Origin: an uncultured virus (IMG/VR IMGVR_UViG_3300036715_000434) | Lineage: Duplodnaviria; Heunggongvirae; Uroviricota; Caudoviricetes | IMG/VR virus record: IMGVR_UViG_3300036715_000434 | DNA length: 64,000 nt | Direction: 5' to 3' (one strand) | Shown: positions 2,368 through 60,905 of the stretch, one piece after another | How positions within the stretch are numbered: the stretch's first letter is position 1 | How the letters are laid out: each line of letters begins with the position of its first letter | The notes under the pieces: model-generated | What the model was told of the DNA's origin: nothing | The model's database searches: none | What the model saw: the letters and a program-made list of their open reading frames with translations, nothing else | Program-made: the position numbers and the translations under genes

Positions 2368-4806
2368 ATGGCGCTCTATCTCCACATTCACAAAGGCGGT
2401 CGGGTTCGCACGGTTGATATGACCCCACCCAGCTTGAAGGAGCAGTACAAGCAACTGGTGGCCCGGCTCATGGATATCATGGAGCGCCAGTCGACTCACG
2501 ATGACGCCCAGCCTGGCCACCCGTTCTACGGTAACCAGTACACCGACGTGGTTCTGGGGCCGAAGCCGACAGAGGCGAAGTCAAAGGGCGTCAAGAACAT
2601 CGTTCACGAGCTGCTCACGTCGGGCCATCCCTTTTCGTTTGAGGAGCTGAAGGCGGCGACCGGGGCCAAGCTCGACCAGCAGCTGCACAACGCAATCAAC
2701 GAGCTGAAGGCCGGCAAGCACGCAGCCGGGGCTCTCGGCATCGTCAAGATCGGGCCGGGCCAGTACCAAGTGGTGAAGCCCAACGGTGAGGTGGCCAAGG
2801 CGCTGCCCAAGGTCGACCCGGACGCCAAGCTGGTCCCGGCGCCGTTCAAGGATCCGGAAGAGAAGGCCCAGGAGGCGCCGAAAGAAGCCACCCTATCCAA
2901 TCCCCCTGCCGAGGCTCCTCCGATCGCTCCTAGCCCTGCTTCCGCCCCTCCCATGTCGCCTCTGACAGGGGTTGCGAAGGCTCCGGCGACCAAGATGACC
3001 AAGGCCGAAGCCGATAAGGCCTACAACGACCAGATGACGGCTATCCATGAGGAGGCCGCGAGCATGGTATCGAGCGGCGGCCCCCCGTCGAAGGAAGCCG
3101 CGGAGTTCTGGAAGAAGTCGAAGGCCAAGGCGATGGCCCAGTGGAAGGCCGATACGACTGGGGTCGACCAGAAGCCACTCCCTGTCGAGGTCTTCAAGGA
3201 GGATGAAGACCTCGTCTACGACCTGGCCCTCGCCTATGAGGCCAAGCCAGCACTGGTGCAGCAGAAGGTCGCGGAAGCGATGGCCAAGTGGAAGCAGAAC
3301 ACCCACGTGGCCAAGTTAGGCAAGGCGGCCACGCAGGCTGCCGCGGTTGAGGCCCCCAAGGCCGCCGTCAAGGCAAAGGAGCCAGAGGCGCCGGCCGCCA
3401 AGATCACGTCTGAGGCCCTTGCCGGGCCGTTGTCGTTTGAGGCCCCGAAGTCTTTCGTACCAGAAGGCCACAAGGGAATCACCACCGACGACTTTGTCAC
3501 TCAGCCAGGCCAATCGGAGTCTGGTTACGTGAAAGGCATCGCAGAACTTCACGAGAAGCTGCATGCGAGTGCCTCCGATCCGGTCAGCAACAAGATCGCG
3601 GTGCAGCATAGGTTGGAAAAGAGGTTGAAGGCTTCGCCTCACTTCCAGAACATGCAGCAGCAATACGTCAGCACGCACGCTTTTGGTGGTTCACTCGAAG
3701 CAGCCATCATCTCGTGTTGGGCTGGTAGCTCAGGAGACTCCGACGACCGGGCTGTCTCTGCGCAGCTGGCCTGCCGTGATGTATTCGGCATGGACCCAAG
3801 CAAGACCGAGACCAAGGCCTTTGGCTCACTGCAGTACTTCAACGGCGACGAAGATGCAGTGCACAAGAAGGCGGCCAATGAGTATGGGATCGACGTATCG
3901 ACCCCGGTCAAGTTGGAGTCGTACAAGAAGGGCATGCAGGACTTCATGCTGGCCCAGTATCACGAGACGCAGGACCACCTGGCGAAGCTGGGCGTTAAGG
4001 AGCTGCACCTCATTCGGGGCATGAAGTTCGGGGCTGGCGGCGATCCGGCCAAGATGGTCAACCTCAAGCTGCAGCCCGCCTCGTCGTTCAGCACGGAGCA
4101 TAGCACAGCCGATGGCTTCTCCGGGGGTCACTCGTTGTTCGTGGTCAAGGTGCCGGCGAGTCAGGTGCTGGGATCCTTCTGCACGGGCTACGGCTGCACG
4201 GACGAGTCTGAGGTGGTCGTGCTCAACCACGAGAACTTGAAGGCCATCCAGATTGGATCGCTCGTCGGCCCTACCGCCACGCAGATGTCGTCGCACATCA
4301 ATCAATACGCCCACAATATCAACGGCACCCCGGGACCTGTCGGCAAGGCGGAGAAGGCCATTCACGAGAGCCAGAAGGCCGCTGCCCCACCCGCCGCCCC
4401 AACTCCTTCTGCATACTCTGGCTCTGTGCCGCCGCAGCCCGTTGGCACCGGAACACTCGCAAAGAAGGCGTTCCTGTACGCCGAGGCCGGGGACCTTGCC
4501 GGGCTCAAGGCGCACTTGGCCAGCATGGCCGATAAGACCGGCGTCCCGAAGACCAAGAAGTACACCAAGGAGTTGATCGCGAAGATGGAGGCGAAGCAGC
4601 TCAAGGTCTCCAAACCCACCCCGGTGACTGCAGAGGGGGTCAAGAAGAACGCGCACTACTACAAGAAGTTGAAGGAGTCTGTATTCAACCACCCAATGCA
4701 CACCGGCGTGCTGTATGACGCGTTGAAGAAAGCCGGCTATACCAACGAGCAGGTCCTGTCGACCTACAAGAAAGCCCACGTGAACCAATACGGAGAGCCC
4801 CTATGA
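2368..4806 (+). CDS. Large putative capsid-internal protein with a wHTH-like segment and an R-S-E clade ADP-ribosyltransferase domain
   Basis: GHPFYGNQY motif; LIRG ... SSFS ... ESEVVVL triad; located upstream of portal. Confidence 0.65.
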   Translation: MALYLHIHKGGRVRTVDMTPPSLKEQYKQLVARLMDIMERQSTHDDAQPGHPFYGNQYTDVVLGPKPTEAKSKGVKNIVHELLTSGHPFSFEELKAATGAKLDQQLHNAINELKAGKHAAGALGIVKIGPGQYQVVKPNGEVAKALPKVDPDAKLVPAPFKDPEEKAQEAPKEATLSNPPAEAPPIAPSPASAPPMSPLTGVAKAPATKMTKAEADKAYNDQMTAIHEEAASMVSSGGPPSKEAAEFWKKSKAKAMAQWKADTTGVDQKPLPVEVFKEDEDLVYDLALAYEAKPALVQQKVAEAMAKWKQNTHVAKLGKAATQAAAVEAPKAAVKAKEPEAPAAKITSEALAGPLSFEAPKSFVPEGHKGITTDDFVTQPGQSESGYVKGIAELHEKLHASASDPVSNKIAVQHRLEKRLKASPHFQNMQQQYVSTHAFGGSLEAAIISCWAGSSGDSDDRAVSAQLACRDVFGMDPSKTETKAFGSLQYFNGDEDAVHKKAANEYGIDVSTPVKLESYKKGMQDFMLAQYHETQDHLAKLGVKELHLIRGMKFGAGGDPAKMVNLKLQPASSFSTEHSTADGFSGGHSLFVVKVPASQVLGSFCTGYGCTDESEVVVLNHENLKAIQIGSLVGPTATQMSSHINQYAHNINGTPGPVGKAEKAIHESQKAAAPPAAPTPSAYSGSVPPQPVGTGTLAKKAFLYAEAGDLAGLKAHLASMADKTGVPKTKKYTKELIAKMEAKQLKVSKPTPVTAEGVKKNAHYYKKLKESVFNHPMHTGVLYDALKKAGYTNEQVLSTYKKAHVNQYGEPL

Positions 4807-36394: not shown

Positions 36395-39025
36395 TCAGAT
36401 ATACGGGTTAGGGTGGCCAAACAGAACGTCGCTCCGATACTTCGCTATCTCCTTAAGATCGCTCCAGCGGGTGCCGACAGAGACCTCGACGACTAGAGGA
36501 ACGTTGATCCAATCAAAGCGTGGCAGGCACATCTCGCGCACGATGATGTCGATCTTTCTTTCAATCGTCGCGTCGCACAGGATCGTCGACAGATCATCGT
36601 GAACGTTCAGGCTGGGTTGCAGCTCAATGTCGTCCTCAAGGTCAGCCCGCTCCGACAGGGCGTTCATGCCTTCAAGCACGATGTCAGCCGCGGTCCCCTG
36701 GATCGGCATGTTGATGATCTCGTTAGGCGTCATGGGACCCCGGCGCCGCCGGCCTGACATGGTCTCCACGTACAGGTTCTTCTCGTAGCTCTTCAGCAGC
36801 TTGGCCTGCCACTTCTTCACGCCGGGGAACTGATCCCAGAACTCAGCGCCAAGAGCTTCAGCCACCGAGTCAGGCAGGTGCAACTGCTCTGCACACGAGC
36901 GCAGGCTCGATCCGAAGAGTTGAGGGAAGACCCAGTTGTTCTTCGACTCCTGACGAAGCGTCTTGAGCCCCTTCTCGGCCCAATCTACCTCGAACTCCTC
37001 GACGATCCAATCCTTGATCGCCGGGTACTCCTCGACCATGCGTTGCGCCCAGAAGCCGTGAACGTCGTAGTCCGTCCAGCAGTACTTCACGAGGTTCGAG
37101 TCCTCGCTGGCCATGCCCACCACCCGGAACTCGATCTGCCCGTAGTCGGCCGCCACGATCCAGCCGCTGCCTGAGTGAACGATGCCCCGTATATCCTTGT
37201 GCTTTCGCTTGGGCCAGTTCTGGATGTTTGGGTCGAAGGAGGCCAGCCGGCCGGTGACCGCGACCATGGACGAGTACTTCGAGTGGATCAAGCCATCAGC
37301 AGAGATGACCTGACCACTCAAGACAGGGGCCAGGTAGGTGCTCCTCAGCTTCTCGATGCCGCGATGCTCCAGGATCATGTGAGCAGAGGGCACCAAGTTG
37401 CGAGGGATCTGGGAGAGCACCGACTCGTCAGATGAGTGCGTGATCTTGCCGTCACGATCTGCCTTGCGAGTCTCGTCACGATCGCAGACATCACGCATCA
37501 GTCGAAGGACGTGGTCTGAGTTGGTGGGACTGAAGCTGCCGAAGCGCGCGGTGTACTTCTTCACCTCAGGTGTGGCCCGAAGCCGGCCCTCGATCTCCTT
37601 GACTTGCTTGTGGAGCTTCGATTCCAGATCAACAGCGAAGTCGATGTCTGTTGGCAGGCCTTTGCTCTCCGTCATCACAAGGGTGGGGCACAGCCTGACC
37701 TTCCGCTCGTACTCGGCCCACTGTGAATCGGCCTGGCTCTTGAGCTTGGGTTCAAGATCACGAGCAAGCAGGTCGGTCCATTTGGTGTCTAGAGCGTTGT
37801 AGCGCAGGATCTCCTTGATGGGGTACTCAAGCCACCACTTCGGGCGCTTCACGTCGACCCGGCTCTGATCCTTCAGGTTGAAGCCGAAGCGAATCCGGGT
37901 CTGTATGTCGAGGCTCTTGGTCCCCTCGCGCTCGTCTAGGGTGTGGCACATGGCCATGGTGTCGCCCCACTCCGTTCGGCGCAGAAGTTGCCGGCCGTAG
38001 AAGAACGCCAGCCATTCCTGCTCAAAGCTGAGGTTGTGCGCGATCTTCCGGCCGGAGAGCAGCAGGTACTCGCCGAAGAGGTCGCGCACCTTGGCAATAC
38101 GTGAAGCAGTCCCCCAGCCGTCAGGGTGGTCGATGCTGAAGCCTACCGTCCGCTCGAACGACCCGACCGCGGCCGTCAGCATAAGTGGCGCCTCCATGTA
38201 GGGGCGGAGGCCACTGGTCTCGATGTCGACGCTTGACTGCTTGATGCCAGCCAGGTCTGCTAGGGCTCGTTCAAGCCTCTGGAAGTCCCCAGGCTCTTGC
38301 CCGGTGATGTATTCGATCCCGCGGTCGTATGGGGCCTCGTAGATCGTCGGGGCCTCAAGCTCTTGCCGATGCAGCAGGTCCTCAATGAAGGCCGTGTCGT
38401 GCTCCATGGCGAGCTCGTACTCCGACTTGCCGTACTTCTTTTTCTTGAACACGTAGTTCGGCCAGAGTATCGGGTAGTACCAGCACTTGTGCTCGCCGAT
38501 CTTGGTAGCGATGAGCTGGCCCCGGAAGCGCATCGCGCCACCACTGATGCCAGTTGCCCAGAGCAGCGCCTGATCACCAACCCCGATCACCACCAGAGGC
38601 TTGGTGCGTTCGATGTCTGATGTGATGCGGGGCCGACAGCACTCGATCTCGATCACATCGACCTTTAGATTCCGTTCGCCCTCGTCGTTGAGCAGTGGCA
38701 TGCACTGGGTCATGTGGCCGAAGCGCAGATCGTTGCGCATGAACCCCTTGGAGAACTTGGAGAGGATTGCCGAGCCGGCCTCCCCCACCCAGTGCTTGTT
38801 GGCCCGGTCCTCGTCAGCATTGGGTCCGGATCCCATCAAGTAGGCCATCGGATGTTCAGCGCCCTCCGGCTCAAGCTGAGGGGAAGCCAATCTCGGCCAA
38901 TCCTTTCGGCGGGGGCAAACGTCGCACCCCATCTTGTTCAGTGAGTTGATGGGGATGATCCCCTTGCCTGAGTGCGCAGGCTTCGCCTTTGCGGCCTTCT
39001 TGGCCTCTGCGTAGAAGAACGACAT
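36395..39025 (-). CDS. Family A DNA polymerase with an N-terminal family-4 UDG-like domain and a 3'-5' exonuclease (SPO1-type architecture)
   Basis: C..C, G.GP..DED, CCRP UDG-like N-terminus; DIETSG, HN..F, YNALD exonuclease; TGRLAS.DPNIQN, ADYGQIE.R, N.PIQGTAADI, VHDD. Confidence 0.92.
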   Translation of the reverse strand: MSFFYAEAKKAAKAKPAHSGKGIIPINSLNKMGCDVCPRRKDWPRLASPQLEPEGAEHPMAYLMGSGPNADEDRANKHWVGEAGSAILSKFSKGFMRNDLRFGHMTQCMPLLNDEGERNLKVDVIEIECCRPRITSDIERTKPLVVIGVGDQALLWATGISGGAMRFRGQLIATKIGEHKCWYYPILWPNYVFKKKKYGKSEYELAMEHDTAFIEDLLHRQELEAPTIYEAPYDRGIEYITGQEPGDFQRLERALADLAGIKQSSVDIETSGLRPYMEAPLMLTAAVGSFERTVGFSIDHPDGWGTASRIAKVRDLFGEYLLLSGRKIAHNLSFEQEWLAFFYGRQLLRRTEWGDTMAMCHTLDEREGTKSLDIQTRIRFGFNLKDQSRVDVKRPKWWLEYPIKEILRYNALDTKWTDLLARDLEPKLKSQADSQWAEYERKVRLCPTLVMTESKGLPTDIDFAVDLESKLHKQVKEIEGRLRATPEVKKYTARFGSFSPTNSDHVLRLMRDVCDRDETRKADRDGKITHSSDESVLSQIPRNLVPSAHMILEHRGIEKLRSTYLAPVLSGQVISADGLIHSKYSSMVAVTGRLASFDPNIQNWPKRKHKDIRGIVHSGSGWIVAADYGQIEFRVVGMASEDSNLVKYCWTDYDVHGFWAQRMVEEYPAIKDWIVEEFEVDWAEKGLKTLRQESKNNWVFPQLFGSSLRSCAEQLHLPDSVAEALGAEFWDQFPGVKKWQAKLLKSYEKNLYVETMSGRRRRGPMTPNEIINMPIQGTAADIVLEGMNALSERADLEDDIELQPSLNVHDDLSTILCDATIERKIDIIVREMCLPRFDWINVPLVVEVSVGTRWSDLKEIAKYRSDVLFGHPNPYI

Positions 39026-39037
39026 CGCTCCCCCGAC

Positions 39038-40153
39038 TCAGACTGAGCAGTGGGCGATCAAGTGCAGGAAGCTGGCGTCTTTGTTGCCCATCACCAGGAC
39101 GCGATTAAAGAAGCCCAGATGCGTGCAAACCTTGCAAGCCCGGGTGACCAGCGTCGGGTCGATGTGGAACGGCTCTGATGGGCTATCCCCAGCGTCGAAC
39201 GTGATGCTATCACTCGCTTCACCGACCGAGCTGGTCGACAGGAGCTTGATGGCCTCGGAAGTGCAGGTGATCTTGGTGGCCTTGTCGACCTCGTTGCTTA
39301 GGATGAGCAGAGCCCGGGTGAAGGCGGCGTCGAAGGCATCGGGGATTGGGTCGATCAAGTCGGACACCTTCTTTGACTTGATGTGCTTCGACATGATCGC
39401 CGGGAAGTCGAGTGGCTCAAGGTCAACCAAGGTCTTCTGGAATAGCACGGCGACCTCAGCATCCCCCTCGTCGAAGAAGTAGGCCACCAGCGCGCCAGCG
39501 TGAAGTTCGACCTCCACCTCGACTTTGGGAAAGGCCTTCGACAGAGAAACCAACTGCTCGCAGAAGAACGCCGGGAGGATCACAGGCGCATCGCCTGGCA
39601 GTTCTACCTTGCTCTTGGTTGCGTAGCGGCTGATCGTGGTGTTGTCGGTTGAGAAGAGCACAGCCTTGCCGGCTTCAGCATCGAGAGTGACGCCCATCGT
39701 CGCCGGGTGGGTCGGGTCATTGCCCACGGAGAGCAGGCAGCGTTGGATGCCGGCCAGGATGTCCTCAGTGATGTTCAGCACCGGCACCTTCTGCTTCGCT
39801 TCCGGAATGGCCAACGGGAAGTCTTTGGCCGGCAGGATGGGGATCTTGATCTTCGACCGGCCGGAGACGATCACAAGGCTTGCGTCAGCGCCAGCCTGCA
39901 ACATCACCTTCTCCGCATTGAAGCTGTTCAGGCTCTTCGATAGCGTCTCACCTGGCAAGCAGAGATCCAGGTCTAGGTCCTTGGTCGGCAGAGCGATCTG
40001 GATCGCGGCGATGTCGTTGTAGGAGGACGCGAACCCGCCGCCGAACTTGATGTGCTTTAACGCCGGAATGTAGTCCTGAGTCGCAACGGCCGGCTTTAGC
40101 AGGTTGACCAGCTTGAGCAGAGTTTCGCGGTTGATCGAGTCGGTGGAGTTCAT
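39038..40153 (-). CDS. Sliding clamp (DNA Pol III beta-like)
   Basis: 371 aa; PALKHI, DFP, GVTL......FSTD...ISR motifs; adjacent to polymerase and clamp loader. Confidence 0.78.
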   Translation of the reverse strand: MNSTDSINRETLLKLVNLLKPAVATQDYIPALKHIKFGGGFASSYNDIAAIQIALPTKDLDLDLCLPGETLSKSLNSFNAEKVMLQAGADASLVIVSGRSKIKIPILPAKDFPLAIPEAKQKVPVLNITEDILAGIQRCLLSVGNDPTHPATMGVTLDAEAGKAVLFSTDNTTISRYATKSKVELPGDAPVILPAFFCEQLVSLSKAFPKVEVEVELHAGALVAYFFDEGDAEVAVLFQKTLVDLEPLDFPAIMSKHIKSKKVSDLIDPIPDAFDAAFTRALLILSNEVDKATKITCTSEAIKLLSTSSVGEASDSITFDAGDSPSEPFHIDPTLVTRACKVCTHLGFFNRVLVMGNKDASFLHLIAHCSV

Positions 40154-40310
40154 GGTGTTTTGCTTTCAGTTGCTGGGTGAGGAGTTCGAGGGAGGTGTAG
40201 GGGCTTGGGTAGTCGAAGAAGGAGATCAGGACATCGGCCTGGCCGACCTCGACGACAGATGCTCGGTCCGCCGCTGCCGGGGCAGACCCGAGGACGGCGA
40301 AGACTTTCAC
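39948..40310 (-). CDS. Small protein with KVFAV...VLISFFDY motif (TGT/DpdA N-terminal-strand-like)
   Basis: GTGA overlap with upstream stop; motif parallels the 40307-40516 ORF; 3' part overlaps the clamp gene. Confidence 0.45.
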   Translation of the reverse strand: MKVFAVLGSAPAAADRASVVEVGQADVLISFFDYPSPYTSLELLTQQLKAKHHELHRLDQPRNSAQAGQPAKAGRCDSGLHSGVKAHQVRRRVRVLLQRHRRDPDRSADQGPRPGSLLAR

Positions 40311-40516
40311 CGCTTCTTGGCGTTGAGGGTCGGGGCGCGCTTGGGGACCTTGCGGCCAGCCAGCGGAGACTTCGGCTTCAGGATGTTGTGGTGCTTGTCG
40401 GTGTAGTCTAGGAACGACACCAAGAGCTTTGGGTGGCCGGCCTCAAGCAGGCCGCAGGAGTAGCCATTGGCCCCGTGGAGGTCGGTGGCCGATTGAACAA
40501 GGTAGATCGTGGTCAC
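40307..40516 (-). CDS. Small protein with TIYLV...LLVSFLDY motif (TGT/DpdA N-terminal-strand-like)
   Basis: GTG 40516 overlaps the dpdA-like stop (GTGA); GAGGAG RBS. Confidence 0.55.
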   Translation of the reverse strand: MTTIYLVQSATDLHGANGYSCGLLEAGHPKLLVSFLDYTDKHHNILKPKSPLAGRKVPKRAPTLNAKKR

Positions 40517-41337
40517 AGCAGGGCTCCTCGACGAAGGGTGTTCTTCTCGAACGGGCGGGTAGCCTTCGCCTCGCTCACCATCTTGAAGAACATGACATTG
40601 CAGGTGGCTCGGTGGTAGTAGCTCTCCGTGACCTCCTCGTAGGTCTTGCCGCAGAAGGTCAGCCAACGCAGCAGGATCGCTCTCATTGCGCCCGACATCG
40701 AGTTGGAGTGCTTACCCCCTGCGCTCTGCTTCGGGTTGCGGTCTGAGACCGATATGGTCGACGGCACCTCGTCGAACACGAACTCACCGTTGCGCATGGC
40801 TGGTAGGTAGACCGATCCACTCGCGGTGATCTTGATCCACGTGGTCGAGTCGATGCTATACCACGGGTAGCGGAAGATGAGCGGCACGGCGGTCATCCCG
40901 AAGCCGTGGGTCTTCACGACGGGCAGGCCGGCGTCATCAGTGATGCGGGCGAACACTCGATCAAGCCAGGTGCGCCGTGGGCCCCCAGGGATGCCCACGA
41001 GGCCACCAATGCCGATGTAGTCGCAGCCATAGTCCAGCATGCGTTCGAGGAAGCGTGGCTCCTCGCCGTAGTGGTAGACGGGCAGGGGGTCGAGCCCCTC
41101 ATTGCGCATGTAGAGGAAATTCACCCAGGACTGCTCGGCGGCCTCGTTGCGTTCACGCGGGGTGGCCGATCGCCCAGGCGCGCCGGGGATCACATCGAGG
41201 CTGGCGTAGACCTCGATCAATTCGATGTTGGCTCGGATGAACTCGCAATACTCGTCGAGGTCAATGACGGTGCCTCTTGACCACGCCGAGTAAGCCCCGG
41301 AGTCAAGAAAGAAGCGGAACTTATCAGGGGTGATCAT
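40513..41337 (-). CDS. DpdA/TGT-like 7-deazaguanine DNA transglycosylase
   Basis: FLDSGAYSA, LDVI, PVYH.GE, YIGIGG, HGFG, PWYSIDSTTW; adjacent to folE and queC; start refined to ATG 41337. Confidence 0.82.
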   Translation of the reverse strand: MITPDKFRFFLDSGAYSAWSRGTVIDLDEYCEFIRANIELIEVYASLDVIPGAPGRSATPRERNEAAEQSWVNFLYMRNEGLDPLPVYHYGEEPRFLERMLDYGCDYIGIGGLVGIPGGPRRTWLDRVFARITDDAGLPVVKTHGFGMTAVPLIFRYPWYSIDSTTWIKITASGSVYLPAMRNGEFVFDEVPSTISVSDRNPKQSAGGKHSNSMSGAMRAILLRWLTFCGKTYEEVTESYYHRATCNVMFFKMVSEAKATRPFEKNTLRRGALL

Positions 41338-41456
41338 GAGTTGTAGTCGTGAGGTTTCAACGAAGCTGCCTAAGTGGATGGGGAAGCCACATTCACTCAA
41401 GCACCGGCGTCGCCAGGGGTGAAGCGCGGTGCAGAGCCAGGTCAGCATAAGTGGGT

Positions 41457-41535
41457 GGGGCCACCGGGCTGCGATGCCCGGCTATTGGCTTGAGAGGAGA
41501 CTGTCTGGCCTCATTGGCGCAACACCAATGGCCCC
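41457..41535 (-). ncRNA. tRNA-like cloverleaf element (non-canonical) between folE and the dpdA-like gene
   Basis: GGGGCCA/TGGCCCC 7-bp closing stem followed by ACC; TTGG/CCAA, GAGG/CCTC and CCGGGC/GCCCGG arms. Confidence 0.35.
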
Positions 41536-41542
41536 GGTGAGA

Positions 41543-42112
41543 TTATCGGCCCAACGCAATCAGGTTCAAGAACTCGGCGCGAGTCTCGGGCTTCGCCTTG
41601 AATACCCCCCGCAGCGCGGAAGTGGTCGTGTCTACATTGGGCATCTTGACGCCGCGCGTGGCCATGCAGAAGTGCTTTGCCGTGATGACCACGCCGACCC
41701 CAACAGGGTCCAGGACATCATTGATGGCGTCCGCGATCTGGTTGGTAAGCCGCTCCTGGACCTGCAAACGACGCGAATAGGCATCGACCACCCGTGCCAG
41801 CTTGCTGATCCCCACGATGCGCCCGTTAGGGATGTAGGCGACATGCGCCAGGCCGATGATGGGAGTGATGTGGTGCTCACAGTGAGACTGAACGGGGATG
41901 TTGGTCAGGAGGACCATCTCGTCGGCCTTCTCGGCGCCGTCAGAGAAGTCCTTGCGGAGAAGTTCCAGCGGGTCGATGGCGTAGCCAGCGAACCACTCTC
42001 CCCAGGCGCGCACGACCCGGTCAGGGGTGTCGAGGAGGCCTTCGCGTTGGGGATCGTCACCGATGTGGGCCATCATGCCTTTGATTGCATCTCGTGCATT
42101 GAAGAGGGTCAC
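41543..42112 (-). CDS. folE: GTP cyclohydrolase I
   Basis: [38 protein letters not shown]; start GTG 42112. Confidence 0.95.
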
Positions 42113-42957
42113 GCCGAAGCTCCCAGGTTGTAGTTCATCTTGGCGCGGAGGATGTCGTCGGAGAGCAGCAGGCACGATTCCTTGTTGCTGTAGTTCTCCG
42201 TGCGGGGCACCTCCATGAAGCCTTCACGGCAGGCCCTGATCACCAAAGGATCCGGAACGCCAGCCATCTCGAACCCGTGAGCCCGCAGCACGGAAGCGTG
42301 ATCCTTGCCCACCGGTGGATAGGCGCCGTCGTAGGCCGTGTGCGAGAAGGCCAGGGCCACGTAGGCGCCTTCCATCTCCATCGCCAGGTGAATCGAGTCC
42401 CTCTTGCTGAGGTTCATCAGTGGGGCGTAGATGCAGAACTCGCCGGTGCCTAGAGCTTCGTTGATCGTTGCTTCCTGAGTAGCGATAAAACTCTCACGGC
42501 AGTCTGGGTAGTTGGCGTTGTCGGCCTCGCACACGCCGGTGACAAGCGCGTTAATGCCCAGGCAGACGGCTCGGTTGGCGGCCAGGGTCAGGAACAGCGC
42601 GTTGCGCATCGGAACAAACGTCTTCTCGACCCGATCACCGATGATCGCCGCCATCGAGTCGTGGTCATCGTAGAGCTCAAGCACCTCGAACGCATTGGTC
42701 AGTGGGCTAGCGCCCTTCAGGATGGGGCCCAGCTCGACGATCTCATGGCTGGCCACGCCAGCGAGCTTTGCGACATCGCGTGCGGCCTGGATCTCGCGGC
42801 GATGACGCTGGTTGTAGTCGAACGTGACCGCGTGCACTTCGGCGAAGTACTTCTTCGCCCAGAATAGGCAGGTGGTTGAATCTTGGCCGCCTGACAGAAC
42901 CACGAGGGCCTTATGTCGAGGGTGGCTGTTGACGGATCCGGGTTGAGTGTTGGGCAC
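42109..42957 (-). CDS. queC: 7-cyano-7-deazaguanine synthase
   Basis: [39 protein letters not shown] before GTG 42957. Confidence 0.92.
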
Positions 42958-42990
42958 AATGGCTCCTGAGGTTAGGGGAAAGGTGGGGGC

Positions 42991-43027
42991 AAGAAAAAGG
43001 CCCCGCATGGATATATACGGGGCCTTT
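42991..43027 (-). terminator. Intrinsic terminator after the 43052-44044 gene
   Basis: Minus strand AAAGGCCCCG-loop-CGGGGCCTTTTTCTT. Confidence 0.7.
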
Positions 43028-43051
43028 GGGGCAAGCCAGCCGGCCTGCGCT

Positions 43052-44044
43052 TTACTTCATCATCTTGCGTTCGCGCAGCAGCTTGAACATCTTGTGGCAG
43101 TCGGCGTGGATCATGCCGACTGTGGTTTCCTTGAACTCAAGGGCTTCCTTCTTCATCATCTTGACGATGTCATCCTTGGAAGCGTCGGGATTGTCGCAGA
43201 TCAGTTCACGAGCGCGCAGAGTGACCGAGACTCCGCCGTTGTCTTCTTTGGTGGTGCGCTTCTCTTTCGAGTCGTCATCGCCGTCCGAAGCCTTGCCACG
43301 GCTCTTGGTCTTGGGCTCGTCGTCGGCCTTCTTACCCTTGCCCTTGCCGGCGTTCTTCACCTTGACCACGATCGACTCGATGCGGTCCTTGTCGAACTCT
43401 TCCTCGTCGCCGGCTGCGGTCTTGATCACCACGACCTTGTCGTCGATCTCGATCACGTTGCCCATCATGACCTTGCCACGCTTGGTCTTGATCTCGACGG
43501 TGTCGCTGACCTCGGGATCGGCCGGGCCTTCGTCGTCTTCCGCCTCGGCGGCCTTGCGGCGGCTCTTGGACTCGTCAGCCGGCATGGGCACGATCGTGTC
43601 GATGCGTTCGAGGTCCAGGCCCAGCTCTTCGCCGTCGACTTCCAGCACCAGCTCGCCCTTGTCATCGGGGTCGATGATCTTGCCCACGTATTCCTTGCCG
43701 CGCTTGGTGACCACGGTGACCTTGTCGCCCTTGGTCGGCTCGTACTTGGCGGCCTTGGCCGGCTTTTCTTCCTCTTCCACCTCGGCGGCCTTGCGACGGC
43801 TGCGCGGCTTCACTTCTTCCTCCTCGGCGTCGGGGTAGATCGGCGGGGCCTTGTTGGCGTTGACCTTGTCGGCCGCTTCGTTGAACCAATCTTGCGCCGG
43901 CTCGGACAGCTGGCCCCAGGCCTTGTCGGACAATCGGCCCACGCCGACGATCAGCCGCTTGATGTAGGCCTCGTCGGTGATCTTCTCGCCGCGCTTGGGT
44001 TCGACTTCCGAGGCCTTGGCCAGTTCTGCTTGGATCTTGCTCAT
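43052..44044 (-). CDS. Highly charged protein with two tandem Sm/SH3-like beta-barrel repeats
   Basis: [18 protein letters not shown]...LERIDTI and [18 protein letters not shown]...KDRIESI; AGGAG RBS before ATG 44044. Confidence 0.7.
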
Positions 44045-50669: not shown

Positions 50670-51043
50670 GGGCCTACTTCGTCGTCGAGGTGCTTCAGTT
50701 CTTCCTGGCTGTGGTCCATCTCTTCCATGGCCCGCTTGAGGTAAACCGCTTGGTCGAGGCACTCCTCGTAGGCGTGCTGGAGCCATTGGCGCAAGGTCAA
50801 CGGATTGTCTCTGACAGTGGTGCCGTACTTGGAGATACCAAACAACTGGCGTCGCGTGATGTCGGCGCAGACCTCGGACTCGGTTCCAGTAGGCCCAGAC
50901 TTACGAGTGTCGAGCGCGGCCTGCTGCGCAGCGAGTGCAGCTCGGAGTGCCATCATTTCAACGTCTCTGACGAGAGCCTGCTCGTCGTTGATCCACTTTG
51001 CGCGGTCGTTTACCGCCTGTGCAGCACGGGCGAGGTCGGTCAT
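50666..51043 (-). CDS. Small all-alpha (MazG-like) nucleotide pyrophosphatase candidate
   Basis: G..KYG.......WL.HA.EE.LD..VY pattern. Confidence 0.5.
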   Translation of the reverse strand: MTDLARAAQAVNDRAKWINDEQALVRDVEMMALRAALAAQQAALDTRKSGPTGTESEVCADITRRQLFGISKYGTTVRDNPLTLRQWLQHAYEECLDQAVYLKRAMEEMDHSQEELKHLDDEVGP

Positions 51044-51768
51044 GGCATCCCCAGGATCTTGTGAACTTGCAGCGACAGGCGGTAGCCGTGCTTCATGCAG
51101 ATGTCCACAGCCGCCTTGATGTTGTTGGCGTTCTTGAACGGCTCGTGTTCGTCCATGGGCGAGATCCAGATGGTGTCGGTAGCCTCACGAGAGACCAGCT
51201 GCCAGGGGGCCCCGCCGCCGTTGGCCTGGGTCGGTTCGTTGGGCAGCCCGTTTTCATCAACACCGCCAGCCCGGACGACGTACTTCCAATGACGGCAGTA
51301 GTGCGCAATCATCGGGTGCACGTGCTTCGTCTTGGGGCTACAAACTAGAGTCAGCTCGTTCCGGGTCACGGACTTGTCGATGGAAGGATCCCAGAGGTTG
51401 CCCGCCGTCTCCATCTGCGAGTGCTTGACCCCGATGTTCGTCAGGGCCTCGATCAGTGGGCCTGTGGTCTGACGCATCGGCTCTCCGCCGGTCAACACGA
51501 TGATCACTTCGTCAATCATGCTCGGCGCAGGCAACGAGTTGAGAGCTTGATTGACGATCTGCTCAACCGAAAACCGGTTGTTGATGCCGCTCTCAAACTC
51601 GGTATCACAGAACGTGCAGGCTAGGTGGCAGCCAGCCAGCCGGATGAACACCGCGGGCATGCCGGTGAATGGGCCCTCGCCTTGAATCGTGTAGAAGACT
51701 TCCTGGACGGCCAGCATGCCGTCGTCGGGCTTCTGGTCCAGTTTGCGGATAGGGTTTCGGCCAAACAT
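51040..51768 (-). CDS. queE: 7-carboxy-7-deazaguanine synthase (radical SAM)
   Basis: E.FYTIQGEG..TG.PAVFIRLAGC.L.C.FCDT, LTGGEP, ET.G, SPK, RLSLQ.HK. Confidence 0.95.
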   Translation of the reverse strand: MFGRNPIRKLDQKPDDGMLAVQEVFYTIQGEGPFTGMPAVFIRLAGCHLACTFCDTEFESGINNRFSVEQIVNQALNSLPAPSMIDEVIIVLTGGEPMRQTTGPLIEALTNIGVKHSQMETAGNLWDPSIDKSVTRNELTLVCSPKTKHVHPMIAHYCRHWKYVVRAGGVDENGLPNEPTQANGGGAPWQLVSREATDTIWISPMDEHEPFKNANNIKAAVDICMKHGYRLSLQVHKILGMP

Positions 51769-57778: not shown

Positions 57779-57915
57779 AGCCTGACAGGGCTGACCAGGA
57801 GGGCGCAGGACGCGCTTTCTTGGCCTCAGCCACCCTTCCTCCTATCCTCTCCCCTCTTTTAACGCCGCCTAGCCCGTATATATCGGCTGGCATCCCTCAC
57901 CCCTGGAGAAACAAG

Positions 57916-58428
57916 ATGATCGAATACGTAGTTCTGCCATTCAAGAAAGACGAGCCGACAGATGACCTGCCGAAGAACCACAAGCCCCTGATCTCAACCA
58001 AGACCTACGGGCACGAACAGGGCTTCTCCTCGACGTTTCGGCAGTGGCGCGCGCACTCTCACTGCAACAAGCTGCACGGCTACTCCCTCGGCTTCAAGTT
58101 CACGTTCGCCGCCCAGGATGTCGACGCCTGCGGCTGGGTGGTCGACTTCGGTGGCCTGAAGACCCTGAAGCAGATCATGGAAGACACGTTCGACCACAAG
58201 TTGCTGGTGGCCCAGGATGACCCCCTACTCGATCTCGTGAAGCAGATGCAGAGCGCCGGCCTGGCCGATGTCATCATCGTTCCGGCGACTGGTTGCGAGG
58301 CCTTCGCCCGCATGATGTTCGACGTGACTGAGCAGTGGCTCAAGGACGCCGGCTTCGCCCCTCGTGTCTGGTTGATCTCTGTAGAGGTCAGCGAGCACGG
58401 GGCCAACTCCGCCATCTGCCAGGGGTGA
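57916..58428 (+). CDS. queD: 6-carboxytetrahydropterin synthase
   Basis: HC..LHGY, WVVDFG.LK, FDHK, CE.FA, V.VSE...NSA; GGAG RBS before ATG 57916. Confidence 0.88.
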   Translation: MIEYVVLPFKKDEPTDDLPKNHKPLISTKTYGHEQGFSSTFRQWRAHSHCNKLHGYSLGFKFTFAAQDVDACGWVVDFGGLKTLKQIMEDTFDHKLLVAQDDPLLDLVKQMQSAGLADVIIVPATGCEAFARMMFDVTEQWLKDAGFAPRVWLISVEVSEHGANSAICQG

Positions 58429-59878: not shown

Positions 59879-60155
59879 CATGCTTGGGCCACCCCTTATA
59901 CTTTAACCACCCAGAGCTCCTTGATTACGCACAGAGCAGATCCAGGCTCTGTGCGCTCGTGATGGGGCAAGTGGCAGGGTAGGCGCTTCAGGGCATTTTG
60001 CGTCGATCCTGGGAGGTCCTAGGGGGCTTCCTGGCGCTCTTCTGGGGTTGAGCTGCTTCCATCTCGTGACGAGATTTGCTGGATCCCCCGGTGCTGAAGT
60101 TCAGGCTTGTTCGGCATTGGGGTTCTTTTTCACCCAGGCCAAAGGAACTAATACC

Positions 60156-60905
60156 ATGACCAACAAGCGACGCAAGTTCATTCATGGCTGGCGGCCGGAT
60201 CAACACGACGGCCGCGACCATCTTTACATGATGATCGGCAAGCCAGCCCAGCTGCCGCCCTCTATTGATCTCCGCGGCGCCATGCCAGCGGTCTACGATC
60301 AAGGCCAGCTCGGATCCTGCACCGGCAACGCCATCGCAGGAGCCATCGACTACGCCAATGGCCCCGGTGGTCTGATGCCGAGTCGCTTATTCATCTACTA
60401 TAACGAACGCGTCAAAGAAGGCACGGTCCGTCAAGATGCCGGGGCCATGATTCGCGACGGCATCAAGTCAGTCAACCAGCTTGGCGTCTGCCCTGAACTC
60501 GACTGGCCCTACGACATCAGCAAATTCAAGCAGAAGCCACCCAAGGCAGCCTTTGCCGACGCGCTGAACAAGAAGGTTAGCTCGTATGCCCGCATCACCT
60601 CGCTTCAATCAATGAGGACGTGCCTGGCCTACGACAACAAGCCATTCGTGTTCGGCTTCGCAGTCTACGAGAGCTTCGAGTCTCAAGCCGTGGCCGACTC
60701 AGGTCGGCTAGAGATGCCCACGCCAGGCGAACGCCTACTAGGCGGCCACGCAGTGCTCTGTGTCGGCTATGACGATGACTCACGTCGCATGATCGTCCGC
60801 AACTCGTGGGGATCAAGTTGGGGCATCAACGGCTACTTCACGATGCCATACGACTACATCACCAACCCCAAACTGGCCGACGACATGTGGGCCATCACCC
60901 TCTGA
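60156..60905 (+). CDS. Papain-like cysteine protease (C1A)
   Basis: LP..IDLR, DQGQLGSCT, GGHAVLCVGYDD, RNSWG..WG.NGYF; AAGGA RBS. Confidence 0.92.
   Translation: MTNKRRKFIHGWRPDQHDGRDHLYMMIGKPAQLPPSIDLRGAMPAVYDQGQLGSCTGNAIAGAIDYANGPGGLMPSRLFIYYNERVKEGTVRQDAGAMIRDGIKSVNQLGVCPELDWPYDISKFKQKPPKAAFADALNKKVSSYARITSLQSMRTCLAYDNKPFVFGFAVYESFESQAVADSGRLEMPTPGERLLGGHAVLCVGYDDDSRRMIVRNSWGSSWGINGYFTMPYDYITNPKLADDMWAITL

Follow-up and report, generated by a model that had tools for sequence, protein, structure and literature searches.

The closest described counterparts of the locus reported here are the DpdA1 proteins of Queuovirinae phages (9g/slur01, CAjan, PaMx25, and iggy) and the DpdA of Salmonella Montevideo (7UI4; PMC10164549). 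In phage DpdA1, barrel strands 1 and 2 are part of a single chain, with 62 residues before the DSG motif. The bacterial protein is a monomer made of one chain; it contains a Zn site and requires DpdB/ATP. As described for it in the text of PMC10164549, two DpdA-specific insertions follow strands 1 and 2, in the part equivalent to the modules considered below; the first of them enlarges the DNA surface, and the second lies beside the active site and, in the authors' suggestion for this distant protein, may aid sequence recognition. Target motifs vary among phage DpdA proteins, and very few phages have a known one (CAjan and iggy, according to the text of PMC10484667). Restriction and anti-deazaguanine glycosylases are both described as selecting on 7-deazaguanine modification (10.1101/2025.10.29.685425), and a phage exposed to glycosylases directed at 7-deazaguanine DNA has reason to vary its modification. 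For variation of this kind, the nearest precedent is the T2 agt contingency locus (PMC12633550), where repeats in a DNA-modification gene allow switching between two opposing host defences. There, mono-A tracts turn a whole gene off, whereas the repeats described here lie in exchangeable sub-domains and only in relatives of our phage; in a term search of the sections of PMC12633550 covered, DpdA and dinucleotide repeats were never mentioned. Our literature searches, together with term look-ups in passages of PMC6884629, PMC10484667, 10.1101/2023.04.13.536721, and 10.64898/2026.04.15.718813, gave neither a split phage DpdA nor a repeat-switched module.

The stretch analysed as a whole (64,000 nucleotides, hereafter the window) represents the genome of a tailed phage, whose replication operon lies on the minus strand and is made up of queC, folE, dpdA, two small ORFs, a beta clamp, and DNA polymerase A (Table 1). 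It shares with the phage DpdA1 loci the surrounding genes (que genes, folE, the clamp, and the polymerase), together with approximately 35% identity over the core of the enzyme and the catalytic motifs. Where those phages have strands 1 and 2 in a single chain, the window has one fused version and two free paralogs, along with an internal start. The preQ0 pathway set (folE, queD, queE, and queC) is present in the window by Pfam, PHROGs, and NCBIfam profiles. Among cultured phages, the closest relative is Edwardsiella phage vB_EpM_ZHS (OM621816), which is named in two papers and has 66.7% identity over the core; the next is Queuovirinae DpdA1, at the level given above. The Edwardsiella phage also has an in-frame cis module and two free modules, ZHS_63 and ZHS_62, both labelled ‘hypothetical’, but its free modules are of other classes than those of the window. 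Its cis module is unannotated, lies ahead of the annotated dpdA start (positions 3887-4000 of locus L001), and contains an (AG)6 repeat. Across 39000-43200 of the window, contigs of four public runs are without any listed insertion, deletion, or substitution, the best of these runs possibly being the source sample. The only joint listed in that interval falls in folE/queC; DNA rearrangement between modules was rejected, as these four low-depth contig sets have no joint in the module region.

Table 1. Features of the dpdA locus and the preQ0 pathway in the window, and apparent circular permutants among distant relatives.
Feature	Location	Strand	Remarks
Cis module (beta1-alpha1-beta2, W-type)	41338..41448	-	37 codons, in frame with core; ATG 41448 gives 311-aa DpdA
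DpdA catalytic core (barrel strands 3-8, 274 aa)	40513..41337	-	PHROG 887, E 2e-49, from profile position 57
Free module A (69 aa, basic tail)	40307..40516	-	Profile match E 1.6e-18
Free module B ORF (120 aa)	39948..40310	-	Module ~40152-40310; profile match E 4.4e-8
Beta sliding clamp	39038..40153	-	PF00712, E 1e-9; PHROG 947; gene start overlaps module B end
folE (GTP cyclohydrolase I)	41543..42175	-	PF01227, E 9e-71
queC (preQ0 synthase)	42109..43008	-	PF06508, E 1e-52; TIGR00364 above cutoff
queE-like radical SAM enzyme	51040..51768	-	PHROG 2076, E 2.5e-42; NCBIfam QueE models below their cutoffs
queD-like (PTPS family)	57820..58428	+	PF01242, E 1.8e-16
Apparent circular permutants (distant DpdA-like proteins)	L020, L021, L058, L061, L066, L071, L075, L087, L096		By eye

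The 274-aa protein had been proposed in the initial annotation to be an incomplete barrel, and structure prediction agrees with this. Six barrel strands are present in its model (pLDDT 84.8). The enzyme shares the TIM-barrel fold of bacterial DpdA (Z 13.0-14.0), and the match of the core covers only chain residues 83-411 of 7UI4 (Z 13.0, rmsd 3.5, 224 residues). The part equal to 7UI4 residues 1-82, which holds barrel strands 1 and 2, is absent from the predicted structure, and we call such a core headless. A fold search of 48,161 chains placed aTGT, DpdA, QTRT2, and bTGT in the top four positions (Z 12.3-13.2), with the next chain at 8.9. Six residues (D12, D48, H89, G111, G112, and D163) are invariant in 70 of 70, H89 being the DpdA1 histidine; judging by motif order, D12, D48, D163, and H89 would be the equivalents of D95, D130, D256, and H181 of 7UI4. 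Against two relatives, the core has a pN/pS of 0.30-0.32.

The core is not the only form that the frame can encode. The dpdA ORF had been taken to start about 9 residues before LDSGAYSA; ATG 41337 stands as the start of the core, but the frame is open upstream as far as ATG 41448. The 37 additional residues are a third module, matched at E 6e-15 by a profile built from the fused modules of 37 other proteins; the second match of that profile among 1,687 six-frame segments is ORF A (E 0.009). This cis module has a pN/pS of 0.40-0.41 against two relatives. By predicted starts, the best 120 homologs comprise 69 core-only proteins, 41 with an extension of at least 34 residues, and 10 intermediate ones. 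Four of the 41 extensions could accommodate two or three units in tandem. Of the 37 single fused forms, 35 retain a methionine or valine where the core begins. (Near-duplicate loci L035, L038, L047, and L049 are left out of the repeat, repeat-peptide, pN/pS, class-A, and folE-gap counts.) By profile, all barrel segments are present in the 311-aa frame. In its AF2 model (pTM 0.73), where only 38 of 107 alignment rows cover the extension, the cis module folds locally (pLDDT 72-80) and residues 1-37 have no clear seat in the barrel. Superposition on TGT barrels begins at residues 36-40, or at residue 23 for 7UI4 (rmsd 6.1). This genome would thus carry one cis and two free modules, and a choice among the three would depend on use of the internal start at 41337. 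Neither dpdA start (41448 or 41337) has a clear Shine-Dalgarno sequence. The 94 nt that separate folE from the cis ATG (41449-41542) hold a small hairpin; in the two closest relatives, the interval is similarly long but its sequence diverges. The fold of the leader was not significant (z -1.2), and a promoter scan gave 2 sites against 1.0 +/- 0.9 expected.

Downstream of the core, the two small ORFs are as the initial annotation had them. The GTGA overlaps are present at 40516-40513 and 40310-40307, and the shared motifs read TIYLV-x23-LLVSFLDY in A and KVFAV-x20-VLISFFDY in B, whose mutual resemblance is supported by hhalign (97.2%, E 4.5e-11). When a profile of 39 free modules from relatives, with the window excluded, was run against the same 1,687 segments, A and B had the E values listed in Table 1 and the next segment had 0.46. 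Only the first ~52 codons of ORF B correspond to the module; the last ~68 overlap the clamp gene (start 40153) in another frame, and the length of this off-frame tail differs in a relative. The pN/pS was 0.25-0.65 for module A against five relatives and 0.29-0.55 for module B in five comparisons, and it was below 1 in 12 of 12 module comparisons, these being uncorrected values from 36-52 codons. By these sequence comparisons, A and B are real, conserved genes under purifying selection. No family for either was found in Pfam, PHROGs, or NCBIfam, PDB sequence searches returned no true relative, and the ESM Atlas gave no usable match for A. Searches of cultured phages with A and B by tblastn gave weak matches only (E 1-5); a Vibrio match was rejected as a module relative since it sits within a long unrelated gene. 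A viral-contig scan with A alone matched only this phage. Fusion of A to the core by frameshift was also rejected: inspection by eye showed no obvious slippery heptamer, and many relatives have A at a distance of hundreds of bases. A fusion joining B to the clamp was rejected as well, since a stop lies five codons upstream in the clamp frame.

Do the free modules correspond to the missing part of the barrel? The small ORFs had been expected to align with DpdA N-termini, and at the profile level they do: free modules against 46 single-chain N-termini scored 93.6%, compared with at most 7.3% in 40 column shuffles, although the free modules were first chosen by motif pattern. The cis modules scored 93.7% against the single-chain N-termini and 96.8% against the free modules. 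The single-chain N-terminal profile alone barely found A (E 4.1) and missed B. Docking was predicted for B. The complex of the core with the first 53 residues of B scored 0.87, the best of three controls scored 0.01, and the mark applied to this score was reached by 116 of 157 solved pairs versus 2 of 215 mismatched ones. Runs shared at least 87% of contacts, with a partner pLDDT of at least 69. In the predicted complex, residues 3-4 of B contact core residues 161-163 and residues 27-31 contact core residues 9-14, which places the two strands of B between core strands 8 and 3. Barrel closure by B is a prediction of the model, and the pass may stem from the likeness of the split barrel to solved intact barrels. 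We consider completion in trans probable. The earlier idea of a split barrel completed by either of two peptides holds insofar as the core lacks strands 1 and 2 and B is predicted to close it; it did not anticipate the third module, fused in frame.

We propose that the phage would make preQ0 via FolE, QueD, QueE, and QueC, and that DpdA would insert this base into phage DNA. The first two barrel strands of DpdA would form a detachable module. From the operon would come a 311-aa enzyme with a fused module (ATG 41448) and a headless 274-aa core (ATG 41337), the latter completed in trans by A or B, with module strand 1 alongside core strand 8 and module strand 2 alongside core strand 3. The core would hold the pocket for the base as well as the catalytic aspartates, and the module would supply the loops after strands 1 and 2. 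Because it carries these loops, each module would most likely bring its own flanking-sequence preference, and the phage would modify the union of the module motifs. In relatives, slippage at CT/GA repeats inside modules would switch optional ones on or off; in the window, all three are in frame. Type I restriction-modification systems with HsdS offer a comparison, in that a constant catalytic part works with specificity parts that vary, in some cases by phase variation. HsdS has a fold of its own, whereas the variable part here would be a quarter of the catalytic barrel itself. Judged on sequence and structural models, the arrangement is real and conserved, completion in trans is likely, and specificity switching is the best reading of function. 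As a whole, the explanation in which exchangeable modules alter the DNA target motif has, in our estimate, a probability of about 55%, and different target motifs for different modules are on balance to be expected. The steps that we infer are that the internal start is used, which base is modified, how specificity is affected, and that switching can be reversed.

The same structural and repeat evidence would also fit modules that close the barrel in trans but govern how much modification is made, when, where, and how stably, instead of the target motif, for example through the basic tail of A or the helix of B, with the repeats tuning modification density. The tails differ strongly by class, and Dag1 escape is described as occurring via modification loss, so that level matters (10.1101/2025.10.29.685425). 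However, tuning of level needs no set of up to five divergent classes in which the loop after strand 1 is class-conserved, and we regard this explanation as rather unlikely.

The distribution of modules in relatives bears on a further alternative. Among 38 close loci, 115 module matches were on the dpdA strand and 1 was on the opposite strand. Relatives carry up to five free modules per locus in recurring classes, and class identities and translational coupling are kept across phages with cores 54-80% identical. With loci that had less than 200 nt upstream or less than 600 nt downstream left out, the pattern placed class A in 26 of 28 loci, inspection by eye added L011 to make 27, and the class is kept even in loci that have a cis module. 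In 6 of the 28, folE ends at most 46 nt from the core start, which leaves no room for a cis module, and all 6 have free modules; if the enzyme works in these loci, trans completion is needed. The alternative is that the working enzyme is the 311-aa chain and that free modules are regulators or decoys, displacing the cis module or binding another protein of the TGT fold, such as a host enzyme. The cis module is indeed conserved and in frame, and the internal methionine could persist as a structural residue. Yet free modules must complete the barrel in the six loci without a cis module, and the 311-aa model does not clearly seat the cis module, while B is predicted to seat well. We consider regulators or decoys improbable. 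Among more distant loci, a separate module match was found in 14 of 30 headless versus 3 of 36 single-chain cases. Nine long headless proteins have, by eye, a module-like segment at the C-terminus and are apparent circular permutants (Table 1). Two or three tandem cis modules precede the core in L019 (~2650-3000), P0020, P0038, P0073, and P0114. In L007 (~2580-3000), a nuclease-like ORF, which we take from its motif to be of the GIY-YIG type, lies between folE and a headless core.

Switching of modules is suggested by the repeats of these relatives. In close loci, CT/GA repeats of at least 4 units number 18 in 14.7 kb of modules versus 2 in 138 kb outside, and fixed zones defined independently of the profile gave 19 in 44.5 kb of module zones versus 1 in 108 kb. 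Such a repeat occurs in the module zones of 14 of 34 loci. In three loci (L006, L015, and L040), cis module and core lie in different frames, and a shift at the repeat joins the one to the other; in four others (L010, L037, L050, and L056), a class-B module is severed from its helical tail at the repeat, and a frame shift restores the tail. At the protein level, SLSL, LSLS, or RERE occurs in 7 of 41 fused extensions versus 6 times in 33,004 core residues. The first tandem cis module of L019 holds (CT)12. In L042 (~1540), a module is intact across a G7 tract, and its counterpart in L048 (~3510-3560) is split over two frames; homopolymers may also switch modules. The window itself has no CT/GA repeat of at least 4 units anywhere, and none of at least 3 units in 39900-41600; with no such repeat there, nothing would switch in this phage. 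Eight pairs of genomes were compared; among the gaps listed for the few near-identical pairs, there was no repeat-unit insertion or deletion, and no repeat-length difference appeared in the four runs of the window phage. While the module repeats in relatives suggest phase variation, frameshifts in metagenome contigs could be assembly errors. A further alternative takes the extra modules for duplication relics or decaying copies, and the repeats for mutational decay or assembly error. Copy number does vary, some copies are out of frame, and the cis module of L050 is out of frame without a repeat. Against this alternative are the pN/pS values, below 1 in every module comparison, the conservation of classes and translational coupling, the confinement of repeats to module zones, and a sequence reproduced in public runs. 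We therefore regard relics as quite improbable.

The least probable alternative is that modules alter which 7-deazaguanine base goes in (preQ0 versus ADG or CDG), which would suit a module bordering the active site and a pathway with several intermediates, but, with residues mapped by motif order, the base-binding and catalytic residues of bacterial DpdA described in PMC10164549 (D95, D130, H181, G206-207, and D256) lie in the core-matched part, 83-411. Variation of the target motif is favoured over variation of the base because the base and catalytic residues would be in the core and the DpdA-specific insertions in the module part. From the gene set, the predicted product is dPreQ0. No further modifying gene was seen among the ORFs scanned, which are a subset of all ORFs in a genome that may extend past the window, and no fused glutamine amidotransferase domain was detected in queC with Pfam and NCBIfam profiles.

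If exchangeable modules do alter the target motif, the phage may vary where its DNA is camouflaged. Tentatively, and at somewhat less than even odds, we envisage a combinatorial camouflage in which one core and several quarter-barrel modules, each with its own motif, would give a phage population, through repeat slippage, mixed patterns as a hedge between restriction enzymes on one side and nucleases that seek modifications on the other. With repeat switching, phage contingency loci would not only act as on/off switches but also select among patterns. An enzyme whose TIM barrel is closed in trans by any of several paralogous peptides would be unusual in its design, and it might open a way to exchange DNA bases at selected sites. 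The question of what determines the target motif of a phage DpdA becomes directly testable with this natural series of one core and swappable strand 1-2 modules, and a cultured phage with the layout exists. Annotations present headless DpdAs as complete enzymes, and their modules are labelled hypothetical or missed altogether; consequently, tests of headless dpdA genes alone could fail, with the modules going unrecognised. In the window, avoided six-base palindromes include CTCGAG, ATCGAT, AGATCT, and GACGTC, and many of the avoided ones contain GA; GGCGCC and GCGCGC are not avoided. No target motif was identified from palindrome avoidance (both strands were counted, which inflates z), and there is a weak hint that GA is not the main target of this enzyme.

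Several other features of the genome were recorded. A short basic-then-hydrophobic motif at the DpdA C-terminus (40513-40530, minus strand) is kept in relatives. It resembles what we take to be the consensus of a sliding-clamp binding motif, and the phage's own clamp gene adjoins; DpdA may ride the clamp. DNA polymerase A (36395-39025, minus strand) has an N-terminal uracil-DNA glycosylase-like domain. On the plus strand, a papain-family cysteine protease gene lies near the terminase (60048-60905), and an 812-aa protein without a Pfam family (2368-4806) is encoded ahead of a portal-like gene.
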